Source: a phage. From it: a stretch of DNA of 64,000 nucleotides. Below, piece after piece: positions 3,582 through 29,864 of the stretch (the stretch's first letter is position 1; the number at the start of each line of letters is the position of its first letter). Below the pieces are notes generated by a model. That model was not told where the DNA came from. It made no database searches and was given only the letters and a program-made list of their open reading frames with translations. Position numbers and translations under genes: made by a program. The stretch is taken from sequence record PX246730.1. One strand, given 5' to 3'.

Positions 3582-4130
3582 ATGAAGAAATTGATTCTAG
3601 GTTTGTGCTTAATGTTTACAGCACACTTATCTTATGCAGTTGACTGCCCAGAGCTATCAATTAGCCAAAAAGTAAACATGTTAAAAGCTTACCAGTATGG
3701 TGAGAATAACATGGGTAAAGGTTGGGGTATCACTCTAGCTGCTATAGCCTTACAAGAGTCAGAGCTAGGTCTGAAGGTAGAGAATAAAAAGACACACGAT
3801 TATGGTATTTTCCAGAATCACTTGAAGACTGTTGTAAAGCGTAACAAAATCAGCCCTAATGTGGCTAAAAAGAAACTCTTAAGAGACTTTGATTATGCTG
3901 CGAAGGAAACTCACAAAGAGCTTGAGTTTTGGACAAAGGTGCATGGTCAGCCAAAGTCAAAGAAGACTTTACAAAAAGTTTTAGCATCATATAATGCTGG
4001 GTATTCGTACAGAATCCCTAAAGCTAAGAAATATTCTCAAGATGTCTATAACAACATGAAAGTCATTGCTCAATGTGAATTTGCAATAAACATTTCTAAG
4101 GTAAACCATGAAAAAATTAAAAAAGTCTGA
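3582..4130 (+). CDS. secreted lytic transglycosylase-like protein (SLT domain)
   Basis: N-terminal signal peptide MKKLILGLCLMFTAHLSYA; SLT motifs LQESELGL, GIFQNH, SYNAGYSY; RBS AGGAGA. Confidence 0.5.
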   Translation: MKKLILGLCLMFTAHLSYAVDCPELSISQKVNMLKAYQYGENNMGKGWGITLAAIALQESELGLKVENKKTHDYGIFQNHLKTVVKRNKISPNVAKKKLLRDFDYAAKETHKELEFWTKVHGQPKSKKTLQKVLASYNAGYSYRIPKAKKYSQDVYNNMKVIAQCEFAINISKVNHEKIKKV

Positions 4131-4803
4131 TGAAGTACTGTGTCATGCTTACGACTTACATCCTCATGAGTTAGGTCTTGATTCCTGTGTATGGACTCCA
4201 GAACAGTGTAGGGATTTTGAAGACACTGCAAGAGAAGTTGTATGTTCACTCGAAGAGTTCCACACATCAGAGCCAATTGTGAATGTTGTAGATAAAGAGA
4301 CTGGACAAACTATAGGTGTAAGTCGTGATAGCTTAGTCATAGTCAATAGAGACCTTGTAGAAAAAGGTAACCTCATCTTAGCAGATATTGATGGTGTTCT
4401 TACAAATTTTAATCACGAAGATTGCTCAACGGAATTGACTGATGGGTCATTCTCACAGTACACTAATCTTCTTGACTCTGTAAGAGCAAAACCAACGTAT
4501 GTCTTTAGTATTATTGATGCAATTGCTAATCATGCTGCCATTGGACTCTTGACAGCGAGAGGTGAATCTCAGAGAATACCTACTGAGATGTTTTTAAGGC
4601 ATAACACAGAGCATGACTATATGCTTTTTATGCGTGGTTTTGGGACTAACTCTATAAGTGCAGAAAGTTTGAAAGTGAGGATGATTCAGTCTTGCATTCT
4701 GCCTTACTTTAATATAGTATGTTTTATAGAAGACACAGAGAAGAATGTGCAGAAGGTGAACAGAATACTTCCACACATCAAAACCATGTTAGTTAAACAT
4801 TGA
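4108..4803 (+). CDS. HAD-like phosphatase-fold protein (hypothetical)
   Basis: 231-aa ORF; HAD motif I-like ADIDGVLTN; no P-loop. Confidence 0.4.
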   Translation: MKKLKKSDEVLCHAYDLHPHELGLDSCVWTPEQCRDFEDTAREVVCSLEEFHTSEPIVNVVDKETGQTIGVSRDSLVIVNRDLVEKGNLILADIDGVLTNFNHEDCSTELTDGSFSQYTNLLDSVRAKPTYVFSIIDAIANHAAIGLLTARGESQRIPTEMFLRHNTEHDYMLFMRGFGTNSISAESLKVRMIQSCILPYFNIVCFIEDTEKNVQKVNRILPHIKTMLVKH

Positions 4804-5288: not shown

Positions 5289-5317
5289 CAGGCTCCTTCG
5301 GGAGCCTTTTTCATTTT
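5289..5317 (+). terminator. rho-independent terminator
   Basis: GGCTCC-TTCG-GGAGCC hairpin plus T-tract. Confidence 0.8.
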
Positions 5318-5841: not shown

Positions 5842-6107
5842 CAGAGAACGAAGATACTTTCTATGTAGAAGGGTACTTACTGCTACCACGACCAAAAGAA
5901 ACTTATATGCGGGTTGATTTCTCACCAACCATTATGGATAATGTGATGTGTCATATCTTTATGCAAGGTGTCACAGCACAGCTTAAGCATGTTGGTAAAG
6001 AGTGCAAAATAAAGGTTGACACTCATCCAGAAATCAAAGAGAATCATTACACATGGTTCTTACCAGATTCTAAAGAAATCTTAGCAGTTCTTAAAACGAG
6101 GAAGTAA
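5838..6107 (+). CDS. hypothetical protein
   Basis: 89-aa ORF, start overlaps previous stop. Confidence 0.5.
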   Translation: MTENEDTFYVEGYLLLPRPKETYMRVDFSPTIMDNVMCHIFMQGVTAQLKHVGKECKIKVDTHPEIKENHYTWFLPDSKEILAVLKTRK

Positions 6108-6109
6108 CT

Positions 6110-6436
6110 ATGCAGATTAATGGAAGAGACTTTGTAGCCGTTTACTACGAGAATGATAAAGAGGTTGGTGTAGCACAAGTAACTTATGGCAATGGTAAGT
6201 GGCTATATGGAACAATCGCAGTAGTAGGAACAAGGAGTGATACAAAAACTTTTAAAGATTGTGTTGACCTTCTTGAAGAATCCATCCAGAATCATTGGTG
6301 TCTGATATGGATGACTGATAACGAAGTGATAGAACGCTTCAAAAAGATTGATATCAACATTGATAGTATTGAGCATGTTGATTTATATGAACTGACTGAG
6401 AAGGTAAATTATGAGAGTAATTCTAGCCAGAGATAA
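6110..6436 (+). CDS. hypothetical protein
   Basis: 108-aa ORF with RBS. Confidence 0.5.
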   Translation: MQINGRDFVAVYYENDKEVGVAQVTYGNGKWLYGTIAVVGTRSDTKTFKDCVDLLEESIQNHWCLIWMTDNEVIERFKKIDINIDSIEHVDLYELTEKVNYESNSSQR

Positions 6437-6638
6437 AAAGACACGGAAAATTATCCGGTCAGCAGTATTCATTGGAAGAAATAAAGTGATTCCATTTACA
6501 GCAAATGATGTGATAGCCTACAGGGAAAAATTAGCATTTAGTTATTGCTTGCGTGGCTTCATCTCACAACCATTGGAAGACTTCAAAAGTCGTTGTGGTA
6601 AAGGTATCATCATTCAAGAGGCAATTATCAATGGCTGA
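6411..6638 (+). CDS. hypothetical protein
   Basis: 75-aa ORF, tightly packed. Confidence 0.45.
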   Translation: MRVILARDKKTRKIIRSAVFIGRNKVIPFTANDVIAYREKLAFSYCLRGFISQPLEDFKSRCGKGIIIQEAIING

Positions 6639-6831
6639 CTTCTGCAAAGACTGTTCTATAGAAATGTTTGGACGTGATACAGGTGACTTAAAAGGTCTTA
6701 TCACTGAAGATGACTTTAAAGCTGGCTACGCAATGCCAGTAATCTGTGAAGGTTGTGGGTGCATCTGGGTAGACCACGAAGGACAGCGTGTAAAACCTTC
6801 AGAAGATAAAGAATCTTGGGAGAGATGTTAA
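6631..6831 (+). CDS. small Cys-rich (zinc-ribbon-like) protein
   Basis: CxxC...CxxC spacing (CKDC, CEGCGC); start moved to internal ATG with GAGG RBS. Confidence 0.4.
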   Translation: MADFCKDCSIEMFGRDTGDLKGLITEDDFKAGYAMPVICEGCGCIWVDHEGQRVKPSEDKESWERC

Positions 6832-7617
6832 ATGGGTATTGTAAAAATAATCAATGGTGATATCTTTGCCGCATTTGATAAAGGTAAGTTTGACATCATC
6901 GGTCACGGTTGCAACTGTATGAATTTAATGGGTGCAGGTATCGCTGACAAGATTTCTAAACTTTACCCAAAAGCATATGAGACTGATACAGAAGTTTATC
7001 TGTATGCAGGTGGCATAGGTCACAAACCCTGTGAAAATTTACTAGGCAATTTCTCTGTAGCACGTTTAGAACAAGGCCGTATAGCTAACCTTTACACTCA
7101 GCTTAAGACTGGTAAAGATGCCCGATACAGTGCTTTAGAGTTATCTTTGAAACAACTTAACAGATACTGTGAAGTCAATCAGTTGAAGAAAGTCGGGTTA
7201 CCTATGATTGGTGCAGGTATCGGTGGACTTGACCCTCAAGCTGTCACAGTTATCATTAATCAGGTGATGAAGAGTGTAGATGTTTATCTATATGTCTATG
7301 AAGGAGAAATGTACCACAAGTTACGCTCAGGTTGGAAGAACTACTGTGAACCAGAATACTTTGCAGGTGTAGCAGTGTTCACAGATAACGCAGTTACCCT
7401 CTTCAGACGAAGAAAAGGTAAGATACATCAAAGTAACCCTCCGGTTGAAAAGATGTCTCTAAGTAACGCTCTAGTTACCCACCTGTCGAAGAGCAATCAC
7501 AGGATTGCAGTAACATTTGGCAGTGATGCAGATGCTTATATCTATGCAAGAACTGATGAGAATATTGAGACGATTTTCTCTTCACCAGAAGTTACCTTCT
7601 TAGACGCAAAGAACTAA
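6832..7617 (+). CDS. macro-domain (ADP-ribose binding/processing) protein
   Basis: 261 aa; macro-domain motifs NGDIF, GHGCNCMNLMGAGIA, LPMIGAGIGG. Confidence 0.55.
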   Translation: MGIVKIINGDIFAAFDKGKFDIIGHGCNCMNLMGAGIADKISKLYPKAYETDTEVYLYAGGIGHKPCENLLGNFSVARLEQGRIANLYTQLKTGKDARYSALELSLKQLNRYCEVNQLKKVGLPMIGAGIGGLDPQAVTVIINQVMKSVDVYLYVYEGEMYHKLRSGWKNYCEPEYFAGVAVFTDNAVTLFRRRKGKIHQSNPPVEKMSLSNALVTHLSKSNHRIAVTFGSDADAYIYARTDENIETIFSSPEVTFLDAKN

Positions 7618-7689
7618 GAAACTCTGTAAAATATTCACAATAGGTTAAGCCTTTCTTATCTGGTAAAATTTTCAGGTAAGGAGGGCTTT

Positions 7690-7868
7690 TTCATTTCAGA
7701 ATTGTGCAGGTAGAGTTCTGTAGAGAAATCTGTAGAGAGAATTTTGAACTCCAAAGAGAAAATTCATTTTCAAACTGTGCAGGTAATCTCCAAAGAGCTT
7801 TTTCATTTTCAAAACGTGCAGAGAAAATCAGGTCGGGCAAGAAAAATCATTTTAGAATTGTGCAGGTA
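7690..7868 (+). repeat. four direct repeats of a ~23-bp motif TCATTTTCARAAYTGTGCAGGTA
   Basis: copies at ~7690, 7763, 7801, 7846, read directly. Confidence 0.7.
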
Positions 7869-7884
7869 AATTTTTATAGACAGC

Positions 7885-7924
7885 CAGCCCAACCCCTCTC
7901 CCCCTCTTACTCCCCCTCTCCCCA
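7885..7924 (-). repeat. C-rich tract (CCCCTCTCCCCCTCTTACTCCCCCTCTCCCC); G-quadruplex-prone on the minus strand
   Basis: four or more G-runs of >=4 on the complement within 40 nt. Confidence 0.6.
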
Positions 7925-8044
7925 AAAGTCAAGAGAAAAATTTGTAGCGGATTGAAAAATAATTCTTGATTTGCGTTCTGTTTTGTGGTAGTCGTGCGCA
8001 CCCGTTTCATTACAGTTTTGCCAAAAATATTTTTAAAATTTTTA

Positions 8045-8104
8045 TTGACTCTTTGAACGTGGTTATCTAATATTTACATCAACGGGGAGGGAATGACCTT
8101 CCCC
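8045..8104 (+). promoter_or_regulatory. early promoter (TTGACT-N17-TAATAT) + 5' stem-loop A + conserved RBS leader
   Basis: hexamers; hairpin GGGGAGGGAATGACCTTCCCC; leader CCTAAACTGGAGATTCAAAAATG. Confidence 0.6.
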
Positions 8105-8136
8105 ACTAAATAAAATCCTAAACTGGAGATTCAAAA

Positions 8137-8325
8137 ATGGCATCAAGAAAAATTAAAGTTGGCGATGAGGTTAACATTAAGCACGAACACTCTTACAAAA
8201 TGCTAACTATACGCTCTTATAAGGTTTATCAGGTGGAAGCTATCCACAAAGATAATACTTTTTCCTTAAAAGGGTATAGCGAACGTTTCCCTGCTGAACT
8301 CTTTGAGAAATGGAGCGCGAAATAA
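8137..8325 (+). CDS. small protein, KIKxGDxV paralog family
   Basis: 62 aa; conserved leader/RBS; motif KIKVGDEV shared with ORFs at 10680 and 13068. Confidence 0.55.
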   Translation: MASRKIKVGDEVNIKHEHSYKMLTIRSYKVYQVEAIHKDNTFSLKGYSERFPAELFEKWSAK

Positions 8326-8531
8326 TGCTTTACAGTCGTGAATTGATGGTTACAACTAACGTTAACACAAAGGTAAAACGTTTTTACATGCAAATTTGTG
8401 ACGTATGGTCTAGAATATCAGAAGCTGACTATTGCAACTATGTAGAAACAGCTATAAACTCTAATTGCTACCTTACAAGAAATACTAAGAATTTTACAAG
8501 GCAAACAGCGATTTACTGTTACGATAAATAA
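8325..8531 (+). CDS. hypothetical small protein
   Basis: start ATG overlaps upstream stop (TAATG). Confidence 0.4.
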   Translation: MLYSRELMVTTNVNTKVKRFYMQICDVWSRISEADYCNYVETAINSNCYLTRNTKNFTRQTAIYCYDK

Positions 8532-23444: not shown

Positions 23445-24860
23445 ATGAGCGAGTTATTCAAACATGCGCACCTTCATGCAGGTCGAACTGAAAATGGTGC
23501 TGTAAACCATACTTCATCAATGTCTGCTCTGGTAGACTTCTACAAAGCCGCTGGCTCAAGCCGTAGCAATGTAGAAATCTTACCAGACCTGTTCTACAAA
23601 GCTTTGCGTGAGGATGTTGATGTTGCAGTTCGTATTTTACTGCATATGCGAGATGTACGAGAAGGTATGGGTGAGCGTAAAGCCTTCAGAACTGTTTTGC
23701 TTCAAGCGATTGAAGACAAAGTTTTAGAGCCTACACAGGTTCTTCGCATTATGGATAAGATTGCAGAGCTTGGTCGTTTTGATGACTTCAAAATCTTCGT
23801 AGGTACTCGTTTTGAGACAGATGCCTTTAAGCATTTAGAAGCAGCATTACTAGACCCTGAGACAGCAGGTTTAGCAGCCAAGTGGTTACCACGAGTAAAA
23901 CCACGACACAAACAGTTTGTAAAACGTTTCTGTAAGTTTGCAAACTTAAGCGAGAAAGAGTATCGCACACTGTTATCTGCACTGTCTGATACGGTTGAGC
24001 AAAAAATCTCTGCTAATGAGTTTGGTAAGATTGATTACAGTAAGATTCCTTCTCTTGCTGCTGCACGTTACCAAAAACTCTTTAACCGTAAAGATGGAGA
24101 ACGCTACAAAGCTTACATTGAGTCGCTATCAAAAGGTGAAGCTAAGATTAATGCTGGTGCTGTCTACCCATACGATGTGATTAAATCTATCAAGCATGGT
24201 AATGCAGATGTTGCTAATGAGCAGTGGAAAGCACTACCAAACTGGATGGCAGAAGGTGAGAACATCTTGTGTATGACTGATGTCTCAAGCTCAATGTCTT
24301 GGGTGAATCTTGGTTCAATCACGGCTCTTGATATTGGTGTATCTCTTGCCCTGTATGTAGCAGAACGCAATACTGGTTGCTTTAAGAATGAGTTAATGGT
24401 TTATTCAACAAACCCTCATTTCATTGAACTGAGTGGTGATTTACGAAACCGTCATCGTCAGGTGATGCGACACGTTGAATATGGTTCAACTAACTTACAA
24501 GCAGCTTTTGACCGTATTCTTGAGACAGGTAAAAGAAACAACTTGACTCAGAAAGATATGCCAAGTAAGCTTATCATCTTCTCAGATATGGAATTCAATC
24601 AGGTTGATGGAGCTAATGGTCGTACAAACTTTGAAGCAATTCAGAGTAAGTACAAAAAAGCTGGATATGAGATGCCACAACTGGTATTCTGGTACTTAGC
24701 AAACCGTAATGGTACTTGCGAAGTGTCTGTTAAGGATAACGGTGTAGCAATGGTATCTGGTTTCTCTCCAGCCACTTTAAAAGCTCTGCTTGGTGGTGAG
24801 AAGTTTGACCCAACCAGCGTAATGCTCAAAGCAGTAATGATTGACCGTTACATCTGGTAA
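23445..24860 (+). CDS. vWA-domain protein resembling Ro60/Rsr (TROVE + vWA)
   Basis: MIDAS motif DVSSSM followed by LGSI; C-terminal IIFSDMEF and GFSPATLKAL segments resemble Ro60 vWA (from memory); N-domain not verifiable. Confidence 0.55.
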   Translation: MSELFKHAHLHAGRTENGAVNHTSSMSALVDFYKAAGSSRSNVEILPDLFYKALREDVDVAVRILLHMRDVREGMGERKAFRTVLLQAIEDKVLEPTQVLRIMDKIAELGRFDDFKIFVGTRFETDAFKHLEAALLDPETAGLAAKWLPRVKPRHKQFVKRFCKFANLSEKEYRTLLSALSDTVEQKISANEFGKIDYSKIPSLAAARYQKLFNRKDGERYKAYIESLSKGEAKINAGAVYPYDVIKSIKHGNADVANEQWKALPNWMAEGENILCMTDVSSSMSWVNLGSITALDIGVSLALYVAERNTGCFKNELMVYSTNPHFIELSGDLRNRHRQVMRHVEYGSTNLQAAFDRILETGKRNNLTQKDMPSKLIIFSDMEFNQVDGANGRTNFEAIQSKYKKAGYEMPQLVFWYLANRNGTCEVSVKDNGVAMVSGFSPATLKALLGGEKFDPTSVMLKAVMIDRYIW

Positions 24861-25025: not shown

Positions 25026-25102
25026 CTCTGTTTAGCTCAGCTTGGTAGAGCGTTCCGTTTGGGGCGGTAAGGCCGGAGGTTCAAGTCCTCCAACAGAGAC
25101 CA
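25026..25102 (+). tRNA. tRNA-Pro(TGG)
   Basis: 7-bp acceptor CTCTGTT/AACAGAG, D-loop AGCTTGGTA, anticodon loop TTTGGGG, T-loop TTCAAGT, CCA encoded. Confidence 0.75.
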
Positions 25103-25109
25103 AATTAAT

Positions 25110-25187
25110 GTTCCAGTAGACAAAATGGTATAGTCACCACTCTTTCAAAGTGGATATTTGAGGGTTCAAATCCCTTCTGGAACGCCA
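25110..25187 (+). tRNA. tRNA-Glu(TTC)
   Basis: acceptor GTTCCAG/CTGGAAC, anticodon loop CTTTCAA, T-loop TTCAAAT, CCA encoded. Confidence 0.7.
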
Positions 25188-25192
25188 GTTTT

Positions 25193-25267
25193 GACAGAAG
25201 ACCAATTGCAGCAAACTTAATCTTATTCATCTGAAGGTAAATCGGACAAAGAAGAGATTTGGTCTGG
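25193..25267 (+). ncRNA. framed element a (ACAGAAGACC ... GGTCTGG closing stem)
   Basis: member of 4-copy family with covarying closing stem; function unknown. Confidence 0.3.
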
Positions 25268-25279
25268 TCATTAAGAATT

Positions 25280-25355
25280 GCGGGTATAGAGAAAGGGCGT
25301 CTCACATGTCTCATTAGCATGGTATCGGCAGGTTCGACTCCTGCACCCGCCTCCA
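25280..25355 (+). tRNA. tRNA-Met/Ile2(CAT)
   Basis: anticodon arm CATGT-CTCATTA-GCATG, T-loop TTCGACT; acceptor register ambiguous. Confidence 0.55.
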
Positions 25356-25360
25356 AATTT

Positions 25361-25436
25361 ACAGAAGACCGTTTACAGCAATACTTATTAAATTTTTAGC
25401 GGAAAAAATTGAAAGATACGGTCTGGTAATACTAAA
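25361..25436 (+). ncRNA. framed element b
   Basis: AGACCG/CGGTCT closing stem (compensatory change versus element a). Confidence 0.3.
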
Positions 25437-25439
25437 CAT

Positions 25440-25513
25440 GGTTAGGAAGCACATAAGGTATGTGCGGTCGCCTGTTAAGCGAATGGCACAGGGTTCGAAT
25501 CCCTGACTAACCG
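25440..25513 (+). tRNA. tRNA-Asn(GTT)
   Basis: D-stem GCAC/GTGC, anticodon loop CTGTTAA, T-arm CAGGG-TTCGAAT-CCCTG. Confidence 0.7.
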
Positions 25514-25525
25514 CAAAATTTAAAT

Positions 25526-25613
25526 GTGTCGTTATCCCGTAGATGGTAGCGGTGGGGACTGTAAATCCCTTGTCATTGAGACTCGGTAGGTTCGACTCCT
25601 ACACGGCACACCA
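25526..25613 (+). tRNA. tRNA-Tyr(GTA), long variable arm
   Basis: acceptor GTGTCGT/ACGGCAC, anticodon loop CTGTAAA, 15-nt variable arm, CCA encoded. Confidence 0.7.
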
Positions 25614-25674
25614 ATTTTGAGAGGGCTATTTAGCCCCTCCCTTAAAGAGTTCTTACGAGTATTCTTTAAAGGAG

Positions 25675-25748
25675 CAGAAGACCAAATACAGCAAGTTACT
25701 TAAAATTTCAAGCCAATTTAATTTTGAAAAATTTAAAACTTGGTCTGG
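25675..25748 (+). ncRNA. framed element c
   Basis: AGACCA/TGGTCT closing stem. Confidence 0.3.
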
Positions 25749-25760
25749 CTCAACAAATTT

Positions 25761-25893
25761 ACAGAAGACCGTTTACAGCAAAACTTAAACAATCTATTTC
25801 TCTGGTAAAGAAAAGGCGAAGGTTCGATTCCTTCACTCGGCAGATGTCGAGTTGGTGTAATGGTAGCACTTAAGATGATAAACAACGGTCTGG
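25761..25893 (+). ncRNA. framed element d enclosing permuted tRNA halves
   Basis: GACCGTT/AACGGTC closing stem surrounds 25797-25870. Confidence 0.35.
25797..25870 (+). tRNA. candidate circularly permuted tRNA-Thr(GGT): 3' half precedes 5' half
   Basis: 3' half = anticodon arm TTTCT-CTGGTAA-AGAAA + T-arm GAAGG-TTCGATT-CCTTC + ACTCGGC; 3 nt later 5' half GTCGAGT + D-arm GTGT-AATGGTA-GCAC; acceptor strands complementary at 7/7 with one GU. Confidence 0.4.
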
Positions 25894-25896
25894 TAA

Positions 25897-26036
25897 TTAT
25901 CTTTGTAGATAAGTTATTAAGCTTACCTGTGAGTATGCGACCACAAAGGGTGAAAGGGTAAATTCTAGATTTAAACCCAACAAGGCACATCGCTACAGAC
26001 CTTAAGCAAGTCTGGGTAGCTTATCTACAAAGATAA
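25897..26036 (+). ncRNA. ~140-nt element closed by 15-bp stem (TTATCTTTGTAGATAAG / CTTATCTACAAAGATAA)
   Basis: long-range perfect inverted repeat. Confidence 0.3.
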
Positions 26037-26042
26037 TTTAAT

Positions 26043-26118
26043 GGAAGTGTAGCAGAATGGTGATGCGGCAGACTTTTAATCTGACAGGCGATGGGTTCGA
26101 ATCCCTCCACTTCTACCA
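26043..26118 (+). tRNA. tRNA-Lys(TTT)
   Basis: acceptor GGAAGTG/CACTTCT, anticodon loop CTTTTAA, T-loop TTCGAAT, CCA encoded. Confidence 0.7.
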
Positions 26119-26122
26119 ATAT

Positions 26123-26199
26123 GGTTCAGTCGCAGATAAGGTAATGCAGGGGTCTCATAAGCCCTATGAATGTGGGTTCGATTCCCATCTGAACCTCCA
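26123..26199 (+). tRNA. tRNA-Met/Ile2(CAT)
   Basis: acceptor GGTTCAG/CTGAACC, anticodon loop CTCATAA, CCA encoded. Confidence 0.7.
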
Positions 26200-26201
26200 A
26201 T

Positions 26202-26277
26202 GCTGTGAAAGCACATATGGATGTGCATTCGGCTGATAACCGAAAGGAAGAAGGTTCGAATCCTTCTCACAGTACCA
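26202..26277 (+). tRNA. tRNA-Ile(GAT)
   Basis: D-stem GCAC/GTGC, anticodon arm TTCGG-CTGATAA-CCGAA, CCA encoded. Confidence 0.75.
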
Positions 26278-26290
26278 ATTTCAATAAAGT

Positions 26291-26319
26291 TGTTGACACT
26301 GAGATGTGACTACTTTATA
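26291..26319 (+). promoter_or_regulatory. strong sigma70-like promoter TTGACA-N17-TATAGT inside tRNA array
   Basis: read directly. Confidence 0.6.
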
Positions 26320-26526
26320 GTAACCTTAGTTTTCGTTGCGTAGCGTCTATTTTGCAAATTTAAAATAAATGCAAACGACAATGTTTTTCTGGCAGTAGCT
26401 TGATAGGCTAAACACCAGTGAGGTCTTCCAATCCCTCATCAAAGAATTTGGCGTACTAGCCCACGGTATGATTAATAAGGTGGGCATCTTTAAGGGCTTT
26501 CTAAGAGAGTCTTTAAAGATTAATTA

Positions 26527-26608
26527 CGGGGCGTATCTCATCTGTCTTCTAAACAGACGTTAACCGAGTAAGTGGAGTATGCGGGTTCGAGTCCTGCCGC
26601 CTCGACCA
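26527..26608 (+). tRNA. non-canonical tRNA-like element with Arg(TCT)-type anticodon hairpin and no recognisable D-arm
   Basis: acceptor CGGGGCG/CGCCTCG, hairpin TCTGT-CTTCTAA-ACAGA, 23-nt extra segment, T-arm GCGGG-TTCGAGT-CCTGC, CCA encoded. Confidence 0.4.
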
Positions 26609-26751
26609 ATTTAGTTAGCAGATTACTTAGACGACCTAAGCGGGTCTTCCTGTAGGGAGGTGGTCTGTATCTCATGTTTTCCAGAACATGTAAATAATCT
26701 GAGAAGGGGCTTTACAGTGTTGAGATAATACGGTAAGCTTCGAATTATAGT

Positions 26752-26834
26752 ATGGGACGATGTTAAGACTCTAAGGCATGAGCAACGGCTTCCAACACCG
26801 TTTCAAAGGGGTTCGACTCCTCCGTCCCATGCCA
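26752..26834 (+). tRNA. tRNA-Trp(CCA), atypical (extra nt between acceptor and D-arm)
   Basis: acceptor ATGGGAC/GTCCCAT exact, anticodon loop TTCCAAC, CCA encoded. Confidence 0.55.
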
Positions 26835-26847
26835 AAGTCTTATTAGG

Positions 26848-26935
26848 GGTAGGTAGCGGCTAATGGTAGCCAAACTGTCTTGAAAACAGTTGCCACTGTA
26901 GAGATACGGTGAGGGTTCGACTTCTTTACTTACCG
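26848..26935 (+). tRNA. tRNA-Ser(TGA), long variable arm
   Basis: anticodon arm ACTGT-CTTGAAA-ACAGT, 20-nt variable arm, T-loop TTCGACT. Confidence 0.7.
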
Positions 26936-27091
26936 CCTAATAAGATTTTAAAGCCAAGCTTCATTCGGATGTTGCTTTGGTATCCCTCGTGTTGTCGAAC
27001 ACACTAATAAAGCACCTAGTAGGTGTCACGGAGAAGAGATAATATCAAGCTCTCCAAAGGTTCTAGTCACCGGATTAAACAAGACTATGCA

Positions 27092-27112
27092 AAGACCTTT
27101 TTAGGTCTTTTT
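27092..27112 (+). terminator. hairpin AAGACC/GGTCTT plus T-tract inside tRNA array
   Basis: read directly. Confidence 0.45.
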
Positions 27113-27191
27113 AGAGGGCTTCTAAGGTTATTACAGCTTGTTGTGGAACCTTGTTGCTTAGGTTCTTAGAAGTTCTCTAAAAAGATTTAAT

Positions 27192-27269
27192 GGGAGATTG
27201 ACGGTAATTGGTAAACCTATCTCGCTTAGAACGAGATGTTTGAGGGTTCGAATCCCTTGTCTCCTACCA
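27192..27269 (+). tRNA. tRNA with anticodon TAG (Leu-type), short variable loop
   Basis: acceptor GGGAGAT/GTCTCCT (GU ends), anticodon arm TCTCG-CTTAGAA-CGAGA, CCA encoded. Confidence 0.6.
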
Positions 27270-27276
27270 AATTAAT

Positions 27277-27352
27277 GCAGGTGTAGCAAAATGGTTATGC
27301 GGCTGACTCTTAATCAGTAAGACGATGGGTTCAATTCCCTCCACCTGTACCA
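27277..27352 (+). tRNA. tRNA-Lys(CTT)
   Basis: acceptor GCAGGTG/CACCTGT, anticodon loop CTCTTAA, CCA encoded. Confidence 0.7.
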
Positions 27353-27358
27353 GATATT

Positions 27359-27434
27359 GGGGATGTAGTTTACATGGTTAAAACATAAGTTTTGCAAAAT
27401 TAAGTACAGGGTTCAATTCCCTGCTTCTCCACCA
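27359..27434 (+). tRNA. tRNA-Ala(TGC)
   Basis: D-stem GTTT/AAAC, anticodon loop TTTGCAA, T-arm CAGGG-TTCAATT-CCCTG, CCA encoded. Confidence 0.65.
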
Positions 27435-27440
27435 ATTAGT

Positions 27441-27515
27441 GCATCCATAGTTTAAACGGGAAAATTACAGTCTTCCAAACTGAGGTTGAGGGTTCGATTC
27501 CCTCTGGATGCTCCA
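27441..27515 (+). tRNA. tRNA-Gly(TCC)
   Basis: acceptor GCATCCA/TGGATGC exact, anticodon loop CTTCCAA, CCA encoded. Confidence 0.7.
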
Positions 27516-27521
27516 AATAAT

Positions 27522-27598
27522 GCTGCTTTCGTATAATTGGCTATTACACATCCCTTGTAAGGATGGAAATGCAGGTTCGAGTCCTGTGAGCAGCACCA
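27522..27598 (+). tRNA. tRNA-Thr(TGT)
   Basis: anticodon arm CATCC-CTTGTAA-GGATG perfect, T-loop TTCGAGT, CCA encoded. Confidence 0.75.
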
Positions 27599-27602
27599 AT
27601 TC

Positions 27603-27688
27603 AGAGGTCAAGTGAAAGACCGCTGGTGTCAACTGAAGACCGTAACAAATTCCACGGAGTTGAGTTAGCGGCACAACTTCAGACCTCT
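27603..27688 (+). ncRNA. framed element f (AGAGGTC ... GACCTCT) containing GAAGACCG motif
   Basis: long-range 7-bp inverted repeat between tRNAs. Confidence 0.3.
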
Positions 27689-27693
27689 TTCAC

Positions 27694-27768
27694 ACTCGCT
27701 TAGTTTATATGGTAAAACACCACCCTTACAAGATGAAGAAAAAGGTTCAAGTCCTTTAGTGAGTACCA
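27694..27768 (+). tRNA. tRNA-Val(TAC)
   Basis: acceptor ACTCGCT/AGTGAGT, D-stem GTTT/AAAC, anticodon loop CTTACAA, CCA encoded. Confidence 0.6.
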
Positions 27769-27769
27769 T

Positions 27770-27847
27770 GTTCCAGTATCCCAATTGGCAGAGGATGCAA
27801 GCTCAAACCTTGTACTAGTGACGGTTCGAATCCGTCTTGGAACACCA
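27770..27847 (+). tRNA. tRNA with anticodon CAA (Leu-type), short variable loop
   Basis: acceptor GTTCCAG/TTGGAAC, anticodon arm GCAAG-CTCAAAC-CTTGT, CCA encoded. Confidence 0.6.
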
Positions 27848-27852
27848 ATTTT

Positions 27853-27928
27853 GCAGGATTAGTTCAAATGGATAGAGCAACAGTCTACGAAGCTGTTAAT
27901 AGGGGTTCGAATCCCTTATCCTGCGCCA
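27853..27928 (+). tRNA. tRNA-Arg(ACG)
   Basis: acceptor GCAGGAT/ATCCTGC exact, anticodon loop CTACGAA, CCA encoded. Confidence 0.7.
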
Positions 27929-27947
27929 ATTTAAAGAGGCTATTTAG

Positions 27948-28505
27948 ATGAGATATTTGAAGTATGCTTCATGGATTTTCTTAGCTTTGTTAGAGCCATT
28001 TGCAGCAATCTTAGCAGTAATTTTAGCACCCTTTGTGGTTCCATTCTACAGTGAAAAGAAAGGACACTTACCTTTTGGATTCAGATGGATGGAGACTTAT
28101 GATAACCCAATTGATGGTGACAAAGGCCACGTTGAGAGATGGGCTAAGATTAGAAAGATTGGTAAGCTCGGTGTTTATATGCAGAGAGTTGGATGGCTCT
28201 GGAGAAACAAAGCTTATAACTTCTCTTACCATGTGCTAGGAAGAGATGTAAAAGATGTTACTAAGTGGAAAGGTAATATCAACGTAAGTTCTAACCCTGA
28301 AGATAATCAGACAGGTTATCTCCTAATGTGGAACAGTAATGCTTGGGGATTATTCGCTTTTACCCCATCAATTAAAATCTTTGGTAAACAATTCTACTGG
28401 AGAATTTATGTTGGATGGAAACTTAAAAGTGTTGTCCCAGAAGAAAGAGCATTCTCAAGGGAAAGAGTTATGTTGGCATTCTTTATTCATCCACTAAGAA
28501 AGTAA
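27948..28505 (+). CDS. membrane protein encoded inside tRNA array
   Basis: 185 aa; N-terminal TM IFLALLEPFAAILAVILAPFVVPF; ATG verified. Confidence 0.45.
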   Translation: MRYLKYASWIFLALLEPFAAILAVILAPFVVPFYSEKKGHLPFGFRWMETYDNPIDGDKGHVERWAKIRKIGKLGVYMQRVGWLWRNKAYNFSYHVLGRDVKDVTKWKGNINVSSNPEDNQTGYLLMWNSNAWGLFAFTPSIKIFGKQFYWRIYVGWKLKSVVPEERAFSRERVMLAFFIHPLRK

Positions 28506-28513
28506 AGATTTAA

Positions 28514-28589
28514 AGGGGATTAGTTTACAAGGTTAAAACCTCGGTCTTTGAAATCGAAGAAGTTGGTTCAATTCCAACATCCCCCACCA
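28514..28589 (+). tRNA. tRNA-Gln(TTG)
   Basis: D-stem GTTT/AAAC, anticodon arm TCGGT-CTTTGAA-ATCGA, T-arm GTTGG-TTCAATT-CCAAC, CCA encoded. Confidence 0.7.
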
Positions 28590-28591
28590 AT

Positions 28592-28670
28592 GCTCCATTA
28601 CTCCAATTGGCAGAGAGGCCAGACTTAAAATCTGTGTTATGTATCGGTTCGAATCCGATATGGAGTACCA
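28592..28670 (+). tRNA. tRNA with anticodon TAA (Leu-type), 7-nt variable loop
   Basis: acceptor GCTCCAT/ATGGAGT, anticodon loop CTTAAAA, T-arm ATCGG-TTCGAAT-CCGAT, CCA encoded. Confidence 0.55.
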
Positions 28671-28675
28671 AATTT

Positions 28676-28751
28676 AGCGGTATAGCATAACTGGCAATGC
28701 AGCAGTCTCTGAAGCTGTCCTATTAAGGTTCAAATCCTTATGCCGCTGCCA
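28676..28751 (+). tRNA. tRNA-Gln(CTG)
   Basis: D-stem GCAT/ATGC, anticodon loop CTCTGAA, T-arm TAAGG-TTCAAAT-CCTTA, CCA encoded. Confidence 0.7.
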
Positions 28752-28782
28752 CTTCTAAGGGTTCTTACGAGAGTCCTTAAAT

Positions 28783-28858
28783 GTGGCCTTATCATAAAAG
28801 GTAATGACCCATGCTGTGAACATGGTCTATACGGGTTCAAATCCCGTAGGTCACCCCA
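28783..28858 (+). tRNA. tRNA-His(GTG)
   Basis: anticodon arm CCATG-CTGTGAA-CATGG perfect, T-arm ACGGG-TTCAAAT-CCCGT, CCA encoded. Confidence 0.75.
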
Positions 28859-28863
28859 ATTTA

Positions 28864-28937
28864 TAGTCCAAGTAGCTTATATGGTAAAGCGCGTGTCTGA
28901 AAAACATGAGAAGAGGGTTCAAATCCCACTGGACTAC
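28864..28937 (+). tRNA. tRNA-Phe(GAA)
   Basis: acceptor TAGTCCA/TGGACTA exact, anticodon loop CTGAAAA; 2 extra nt before D-stem. Confidence 0.6.
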
Positions 28938-28955
28938 CAATTTCAAAGGTGCTTA

Positions 28956-29690
28956 ATGAAAGAGATGACAGAACAAGGTAAGGAGATTTTTAATCTCTTA
29001 AAAACCGGTAGAGGGTTTTCTAATCCCCTTATTACTGGTGCAGCAGTTCTCGGTGGAACCGTAGCTGCCTCTACATCACTTGTAAGCTCTATTAGCTCTG
29101 TAACAGACCCTACAATAAAAGATAAGCTTGTTGCTGCTGGGCTTACAACAGTCCTCCTAAACAGCTTTACAACAAGCCTGACAAGCACTACAGCAACTAC
29201 TAAGACCCTGACAGACTACGGTCAAAAGTCTATTGATGAGTTTTCATCACGTATGCAGGTAGCAAAGGGATACTCCAATGTTATGGGTGCAGCAGGAGAA
29301 CAAGTTGGTTGTACACCATTCAGTGGTATTATGGGTGTTGCTACAGAGTATGGTCAAAAAGCTATTGACATGATGAACAGTACACTAGATAGTGTTAATG
29401 GTGTGTTAAGTGACTTACAAGATGCTATTGATAAGGGTCTTGATACTGTTTCTGATTTAGCTAACCAAGCTGTTAGTAAGATTAATGAAGGTATCTCGAA
29501 GATTACAGCTTATGCAGATGAAGTTGTGCAGATGATTGAAGAAGAAGCTGCCCTTATTGCAGAGTACCTTAAAACGAATATCAATGGGTTCTTAGCAGGT
29601 ATCTTACCAGACTGGTTTGATGATGCCTGTAAAACTGGTGTAATTGACACTATTGCAACACCAGAAATGAAGAGCGCATTACAGAAATAA
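28956..29690 (+). CDS. hypothetical protein (Ser/Thr-rich N-region)
   Basis: track ORF 28740 reads through three tRNAs; start moved to first ATG downstream of tRNA-Phe. Confidence 0.4.
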   Translation: MKEMTEQGKEIFNLLKTGRGFSNPLITGAAVLGGTVAASTSLVSSISSVTDPTIKDKLVAAGLTTVLLNSFTTSLTSTTATTKTLTDYGQKSIDEFSSRMQVAKGYSNVMGAAGEQVGCTPFSGIMGVATEYGQKAIDMMNSTLDSVNGVLSDLQDAIDKGLDTVSDLANQAVSKINEGISKITAYADEVVQMIEEEAALIAEYLKTNINGFLAGILPDWFDDACKTGVIDTIATPEMKSALQK

Positions 29691-29691
29691 T

Positions 29692-29784
29692 GGAAGATTA
29701 ACCCTAAAAGGTAAGGGAGCAGTTTGCTAAACTGCCAGTAGCTGAGAAATCGGTGTACCAGTTCAAGTCTGGTATCTTCCTCCA
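29692..29784 (+). tRNA. tRNA-Ser(GCT), long variable arm
   Basis: acceptor GGAAGAT/ATCTTCC exact, D-arm CCC..GGG, anticodon arm GCAGT-TTGCTAA-ACTGC, 21-nt variable arm, CCA encoded. Confidence 0.75.
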
Positions 29785-29788
29785 ATTT

Positions 29789-29864
29789 GAATCCGTGACA
29801 GAAATGGATATGTGCCTGTCTGCAAAACAGGTTTATAAGGGTTCGAGTCCCTTCGGATTCTCCA
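29789..29864 (+). tRNA. tRNA-Cys(GCA)
   Basis: acceptor GAATCCG/CGGATTC exact, anticodon arm CCTGT-CTGCAAA-ACAGG, CCA encoded. Confidence 0.75.

Follow-up and report, generated by a model that had tools for sequence, protein, structure and literature searches.

The gene at positions 6,832-7,617 of the window (the whole 64,000-nucleotide stretch of phage DNA analyzed here, sequence record PX246730.1) encodes a two-domain protein: a macrodomain with an invariant Gln where DarG and TARG1 have their catalytic Lys, followed by an orphan C-terminal domain. The macro fold, the family relationships and the conservation of an active site with this Lys to Gln replacement are established by the analysis. 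We give about an even chance to the reading that the protein is an AdfM-type (anti-DarT factor macro), Gln-type macrodomain hydrolase which strips DarT2-attached ADP-ribose from thymidines of single-stranded phage DNA and neutralizes DarTG2.

The identity of the macro protein is already recorded in GenBank, and the counter-defence role of AdfM was published in 2025-2026 for T4 and PhiKZ. What is new is the explicit tie between the Felix O1-type protein and AdfM, the recognition of its clade as Gln-type and SCO6735-like, and the description of the orphan C-terminal domain. The original prediction, which had proposed a phage macrodomain protein from the letters of the sequence, contained neither the replacement of Lys by an invariant Gln, nor the lineage-specific character of the C-terminal domain, nor the existing GenBank annotation.

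The macro gene closes a compact operon in a Felixounavirus genome

The window is a Felixounavirus genome (Felix O1-like, Ounavirinae) whose first gene is rIIA. The region 6000-8500 has 92-96% nucleotide identity to its counterparts in over 150 Felixounavirus phages from Escherichia, Salmonella and Shigella, and the phage origin of the DNA is borne out by 96% nucleotide identity to genomes of this genus. The predicted reading frame is present, on the + strand and with 261 codons before the stop, and the N-terminus MGIVK is common to homologues of the 261-residue protein. The gene and its immediate surroundings comprise the following features:

6631..6831, + strand: 66-residue CxxC...CxxC ORF upstream of the macro gene; its stop abuts the macro ATG
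6818..6824, + strand: Shine-Dalgarno-like GGGAGAG, read in the sequence, 7 nt 5' of the ATG
6832..7617, + strand: CDS of the 261-residue macrodomain protein, stop codon included, from the ORF list
7647..7688, + strand: terminator-like hairpin with a T run after it, at the end of the macro operon; phage ASO1A has an annotated terminator here

A second terminator-like hairpin, likewise annotated in ASO1A, lies at the other end of the operon (5290-5307). Between the two hairpins runs a tight series of small overlapping or abutting ORFs, of which the macro gene is the last. The gene lies 3' of rIIA/rIIB, and the small ORFs around it have sigma-70-like promoters; early expression is plausible.

We scanned the neighboring ORFs for ADP-ribosyltransferase, NAD and RNA-repair functions and found none. 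No ADP-ribosyltransferase is annotated in the 50 kb inspected of a closely related genome, and there is no DUF4433/darT gene near the macro gene. A role for the macro protein as regulator of a phage ADP-ribosyltransferase (compare T4 Alt/Mod) was considered and rejected because no such gene was found.

Several observations concern the flanks of the gene. The 66-residue ORF directly upstream contains two CxxC pairs and looks Zn-ribbon-like, and it matches no Pfam family. A distant relative (L004) has a different, 63-residue CxxC...CxxC ORF (7810-8001) which overlaps the macro start; the 66-residue ORF may be a conserved small partner of the macro protein. Further upstream in the same + strand block, a 231-residue ORF (4108-4803) has no Pfam match at E ≤ 0.01, and its counterpart in L004 bears a weak HAD_PNKP (polynucleotide kinase-phosphatase-like) Pfam mark. 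Just 3' of the macro terminator, the intergenic interval 7691-7865 holds four direct copies, spaced 39-73 nt apart, of an element of about 19 nt, TCATTT(T)CAnAnnGTGCAG. The element is essentially confined to this interval, with a chance expectation of about 0.08 matches per whole window, and the four copies could form a regulatory or protein-binding array.

The N-terminal 160 residues form a macrodomain

6832..7311, + strand: macrodomain, residues 1-160 (ALC1/TARG1-DarG-Poa1p-like class, Gln-type), from Pfam, profile comparison with the PDB, Foldseek and BLASTP

The segments originally read as macrodomain signatures are all in place: NGDIF at residues 8-12, GCNCMNLMGAGIA at residues 26-38 and LPMIGAGIGG at residues 123-132. 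Pfam Macro (PF01661) matches residues 25-141 with an E-value of 8.2e-7 and 29.4 bits, above the gathering score of 22, and the match spans positions 2-117 of the 118 in the profile. A family profile built from 32 homologues and searched against the PDB returned solved macrodomains with E-values from 3e-18 to 7e-15: TARG1 (2.8e-18), Mycobacterium tuberculosis DarG (2.2e-16), Streptomyces coelicolor SCO6735 (PDB code 5E3B; 3.6e-16), Thermus aquaticus DarG (5.5e-15) and yeast Poa1p (7e-15).

The AlphaFold2 model of the 261-residue protein (pLDDT 89.7, pTM 0.88) tells the same story at the level of structure. Foldseek comparison of this model with the PDB gives target-normalized TM scores of 0.80-0.82 for TARG1, 0.74-0.77 for DarG and about 0.72 for Poa1p. 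There were 227 matches at E ≤ 0.001, and the ones listed are all macrodomains except two designed-hydrolase entries. From the model and these comparisons we firmly assign residues 1-160 to a predicted three-layer α/β/α macro fold. The reading of the N-terminal ~160 residues as a macrodomain is thus upheld by Pfam, above threshold, and by agreeing profile and structure comparisons. The original prediction had named a profile or structure comparison that gave a non-macro fold as the result that would speak against it; with Pfam, profile and fold matches all macro, no such fold was found and that objection fails.

The protein belongs to a large phage family which includes AdfM

The best PHROG of the protein is 335, labeled "phosphatase" (E-value 2e-112), and PHROG 335 is also the best match of T4 Tk.4 and of PhiKZ gp104. 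BLASTP aligns residues 3-157 with T4 Tk.4 at 35% identity (E-value 1e-23). By tblastn, the macro part occurs in 2,838 phage records, including the T4-like gene that adjoins vs; the T4/Felix-type clade of phage macro proteins exceeds 4,000 members, and a second deep protein search returned close family members only. The sole NCBIfam match is to the macrodomain part of DarG (NF048014, an equivalog model; E-value 3.6e-12). It covers only positions 4-154 of 338 and scores 46.2 bits against a cutoff of 250, far under the equivalog cutoff, and the protein is therefore a relative of DarG and not DarG itself.

Relatives are labeled in GenBank as phosphatase, (putative) macro domain protein or O-acetyl-ADP-ribose deacetylase, and the source names for the gene also include "Poa1p_like". 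The name "phosphatase", in GenBank as in PHROGs, is a transferred annotation.

Two members of PHROG 335 have been tied to defence. Growth of a T4 transposon library on bacteria with DarTG2 gave one significant HIDEN-SEQ hit only, T4 Tk.4 (named AdfM), and clean knockout of Tk.4 renders T4 sensitive to DarTG2, so that the gene is conditionally essential on such hosts; this support for T4 AdfM is purely genetic and has appeared as a preprint (bioRxiv 10.1101/2025.11.20.689424). PhiKZ gp104, also an AdfM, strips ADP-ribose from thymidine (T-ADPr) on oligonucleotides in vitro and shields chimalliviruses from DarTG2 (PMC13309987).

Tk.4 and the window protein have an identical motif set (HGCNC, MGxG(I/V)A, NLYTQ and PxIGAGIG), with Gln at the position of DarG K80. 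Tk.4 is, however, a 155-residue stand-alone macrodomain whose gene adjoins vs/tk, whereas the window protein sits in another genomic context and has an extra C-terminal domain of 100 residues. With 261 residues in two domains, it differs from the stand-alone macrodomain of ~150-160 residues that characterizes AdfM; the two-domain architecture is limited to Ounavirinae-like phages. PhiKZ gp104 retains the Asn (N23, corresponding to N28) and the Gly-rich loops. It differs in its low identity (23%), in keeping the DarG-type Lys (K78, in FPTK) where the window protein has NLYTQ, in being imported into the phage nucleus and in having no C-terminal domain.

The active site is conserved and of the Gln type

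6904..6945, + strand: HGCNC motif (H25, N28) and phosphate-binding loop MGAGIA (residues 33-38), from alignment and conservation
7087..7101, + strand: NLYTQ motif, with Q90 in the column of the catalytic Lys, from alignments
7201..7227, + strand: second ADP-ribose-binding loop PMIGAGIGG (residues 124-132), from alignments; P124, G127 and G129 are conserved

We aligned the active site of the window protein with those of E. coli and M. tuberculosis DarG, PhiKZ AdfM, TARG1 and T4 Tk.4, and counted conservation over 124 non-fragment homologues. The HMMER alignment to TARG1 agrees with this multi-protein alignment. H25, G26, N28, M33, G36, N86, Q90, P124 and G129 are invariant in 124 of the 124 homologues, which argues for a conserved catalytic center and not a decayed one. 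N28 falls in the column of DarG N22 and PhiKZ AdfM N23, and the loops MGAGIA (33-38) and GAGIGG (127-132), both conserved among the 124 homologues, align with those of DarG, TARG1 and PhiKZ AdfM.

The residue expected to carry out Lys-based chemistry is missing. Q90 occupies the column of the catalytic Lys (DarG K80, PhiKZ AdfM K78, TARG1 K84), and T4 Tk.4 likewise has Gln there. Gly131 stands in the column of TARG1 D125, the residue that resolves the lysyl intermediate, so that both hallmarks of the Lys-type ALC1-like hydrolases TARG1 and DarG, the catalytic Lys and the D125 equivalent, are absent. DarG W83, which stacks on thymine, has no counterpart either. With the DarG Lys and W83 both missing, the active site does not by itself reveal a DNA-thymidine substrate.

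A characterized enzyme with Gln at this position is SCO6735: its Gln85 stands where DarG has K80 and TARG1 has K84, and both Q85A and Q85E abolish activity (PMC9411070). SCO6735 protects against DarT and efficiently cleaves thymidine-linked ADP-ribose on single-stranded DNA, a reaction proposed to be water-mediated (PMC9411070; PMC9967889). The equivalence of Q90 and SCO6735 Q85 is transitive, through DarG and TARG1. The spacing of H25-G26-C27-N28 is that of SCO6735 H24-V25-x-N27, the link being the profile match at an E-value of 3.6e-16, and 41 residues separate Q90 from the Gly-rich loop, as they do Q85 from G126. Spacing also pairs the mutated SCO6735 residues H24, N27, K34, Q85 and G126 with H25, N28, A35, Q90 and G131. 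Unlike the phage family profile, E. coli DarG used as query gave no SCO6735 match at E ≤ 0.001. SCO6735 is, like the window macrodomain, of the ALC1-like type, but it lacks a C-terminal domain and is encoded by a bacterial chromosomal gene with a DNA-damage promoter.

The other solved relatives resemble the protein in part. DarG (T. aquaticus, M. tuberculosis and E. coli; PDB codes 5M31, 5M3E and 5M3I) belongs to the same macro class, has N22 at the N28 position and has the same presumed substrate; it differs at K80 and W83, as above, and it has a C-terminal DarT-binding domain and a partner darT, whereas the window protein has neither. Human TARG1/OARD1 (4J5Q/R/S) and yeast Poa1p (6LFQ-U) are the best PDB matches in fold and sequence and have in common with it the His of the HxxN/HxCNC motif; both are eukaryotic and single-domain. 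TARG1 differs in its K84/D125 pair (here Q90/G131), and Poa1p in acting on ADPr-1''-phosphate. Window residues 17-56 align with Poa1p chain residues 18-57, which places H25 on Poa1p H23, the residue mutated in PDB entry 6LFS. For this offset we assume a 3-residue tag in the chain, going by the native length of Poa1p.

The C-terminal domain is an orphan confined to the lineage

7303..7614, + strand: C-terminal β-rich orphan domain, residues 158-261

The ~100-residue extension noted behind the macrodomain is real and is conserved in 243 phage records. AlphaFold2 predicts residues 158-261 to form a six-stranded, β-rich unit packed against the macrodomain. Conservation is weak, with three near-invariant positions only. 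Among cultured phages, the 243 records are all Ounavirinae save two that are oddly labeled; uncultured relatives that share the rIIA-rIIB...macro synteny have the domain too.

Searches with residues 158-261 found no Pfam family and, among PHROGs, PHROG 335 itself only. An HMM search of 1.84 billion representatives recovered the domain in two-domain macro proteins and one fragment only; weaker matches, to PQQ/BamB β-propeller repeats and a retroelement polyprotein, were set aside as likely artefacts of repeats or composition. Foldseek against BFVD found only the orthologue from phage SUSP2, which superposes poorly, and the predicted fold of the isolated domain is therefore not fully reliable. 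The domain is an Ounavirinae-specific add-on.

Comparison of its profile with the DarT-binding C-terminal region of E. coli DarG (hhalign) gave a probability of 0.2%, and by this profile comparison the two domains appear unrelated. Net charge and pI range from acidic to basic across orthologues, an inconsistency that leaves a DNA-binding role without support. We consider it improbable that the domain provides a second mode of action, by binding a toxin or target or by retargeting the enzyme to another substrate. If it did bind a toxin, the protein would be a two-pronged analogue of DarG, a hydrolase joined to a direct inhibitor of DarT or another ADP-ribosyltransferase; if it retargeted the enzyme, Felix O1-like phages would be countering an as-yet-undescribed defence based on ADP-ribosylation.

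Proposed function and its alternatives

In the proposed mechanism, a DarT2-type toxin of the host would ADP-ribosylate thymidines of single-stranded phage DNA, and the macro protein would remove the ADP-ribose during infection, restoring replication and allowing the phage to escape DarTG2. The chemistry is probably not the Lys-based type of DarG and TARG1 and more likely the Gln-type, water-mediated one of SCO6735: Q90 would position the distal ribose, H25-G26-x-N28 and the two Gly-rich loops would hold the ADP-ribose, and a bound water would take part in catalysis. Hydrolytic activity, a DNA-thymidine substrate, a role against DarTG2 and early expression together make up what we infer to be the most likely reading.

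The suggestion that a phage macro protein could reverse host defences based on ADP-ribosylation gains backing from homology, namely the 35% identity to T4 Tk.4/AdfM and the common PHROG of PhiKZ AdfM. The accompanying caution that the target is unreadable from sequence alone was correct; the closest relatives narrow it to DarT2-type thymidine-linked ADP-ribose on single-stranded DNA. Against this DarT2-DNA reading, DarG is roughly equalled in score by Poa1p, TARG1 and SCO6735, enzymes that act on ADPr-1''-phosphate or on protein-linked ADP-ribose. A search of the literature on Felix O1 or Felixounavirus with macro domain, DarTG and early transcription found nothing relevant.

We weighed three other explanations. 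The protein might be a Poa1p-like hydrolase of small ADP-ribose derivatives which quenches or detoxifies NAD-derived molecules and does not repair DNA, with ADPr-1''-phosphate, O-acetyl-ADPr, or immune signals and toxins such as Thoeris-type cyclic or His-linked ADPR as candidate substrates. The "phosphatase", "O-acetyl-ADP-ribose deacetylase" and "Poa1p_like" labels (GenBank, PHROG and source names), the profile match and TM score for Poa1p, and the alignment of H-x-C-N-C with Poa1p H23 all point this way, and a comparative-genomics survey proposes that phage macrodomains act mostly on small ADP-ribose derivatives (PMC9503650). We nevertheless judge it unlikely: T4 depends on Tk.4, the nearest relative for which a phenotype is known, specifically on hosts with DarTG2; the Gln-type site fits SCO6735, an enzyme of macromolecular ADP-ribose; and among the adjacent genes we found none that makes or needs such metabolites. 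Macromolecules other than DNA are the targets in a further reading, by which the protein would remove mono-ADP-ribose from phage or host proteins (Asp/Glu-linked) or from RNA modified by host ADP-ribosyltransferase toxins. TARG1 is the top match in both sequence and fold, and SCO6735 also clears Asp/Glu-linked ADP-ribose from proteins; but the TARG1 catalytic pair is lost, and the 50 kb inspected of the related genome has no annotated ADP-ribosyltransferase. T4, despite Tk.4, is strongly restricted by CmdTAC, an mRNA ADP-ribosyltransferase system (PMC11618068), which argues against an RNA target of the CmdTAC type. Such a role seems to us quite unlikely.

It is highly improbable that the protein is a non-catalytic ADP-ribose binder, that is, a reader, a sponge or a stoichiometric inhibitor of an ADP-ribosyltransferase whose C-terminal domain makes the protein contact. 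The canonical catalytic Lys is indeed absent, DarG, TARG1 and SCO6735 retain their inhibition of DarT through interaction when catalytically dead (PMC9411070), and the C-terminal domain could serve for binding, as that of DarG does. However, the Gln, Asn and His positions with known importance for catalysis in SCO6735, DarG and Poa1p are strictly invariant here, and the C-terminal domain, besides being poorly conserved, is unlike that of DarG.

Host DarTG and significance

The system that the proposed hydrolase would counter is found within the host species: of 5,426 complete E. coli genomes, 249 carry one macro-type darTG allele. In E. coli CP061270.1 (518374-521823), this pair of darT (DUF4433) and darG is flanked by the hsdS and hsdR genes of a type I restriction-modification locus, and the allele is almost always chromosomal. 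Felix O1-like phages are widely used in Salmonella and E. coli typing, biocontrol and therapy. If the protein is, as is probable, an anti-DarTG2 enzyme, its recognition would aid the prediction of host range on the approximately 5% of E. coli with macro-type DarTG. The invariant Gln suggests that the T4/Felix-type clade as a whole, with its more than 4,000 proteins, probably uses the less-studied SCO6735-type chemistry. Current concepts are unchanged; the family described in 2025-2026 is extended to another phage subfamily.

Other features of the window

Elsewhere in the window, 24 tRNA genes with interspersed small ORFs occupy 25026-29864 on the + strand, a kind of cluster typical of Felix O1-like phages. 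Proteins with DUF7338 and DUF7217 are encoded within it, at 27948-28505 and 28740-29690, respectively. Directly 5' of the cluster, positions 23445-24860 encode a 471-residue protein with DUF2828 and DUF7788, which bears the label "RNA-binding protein" in a relative.
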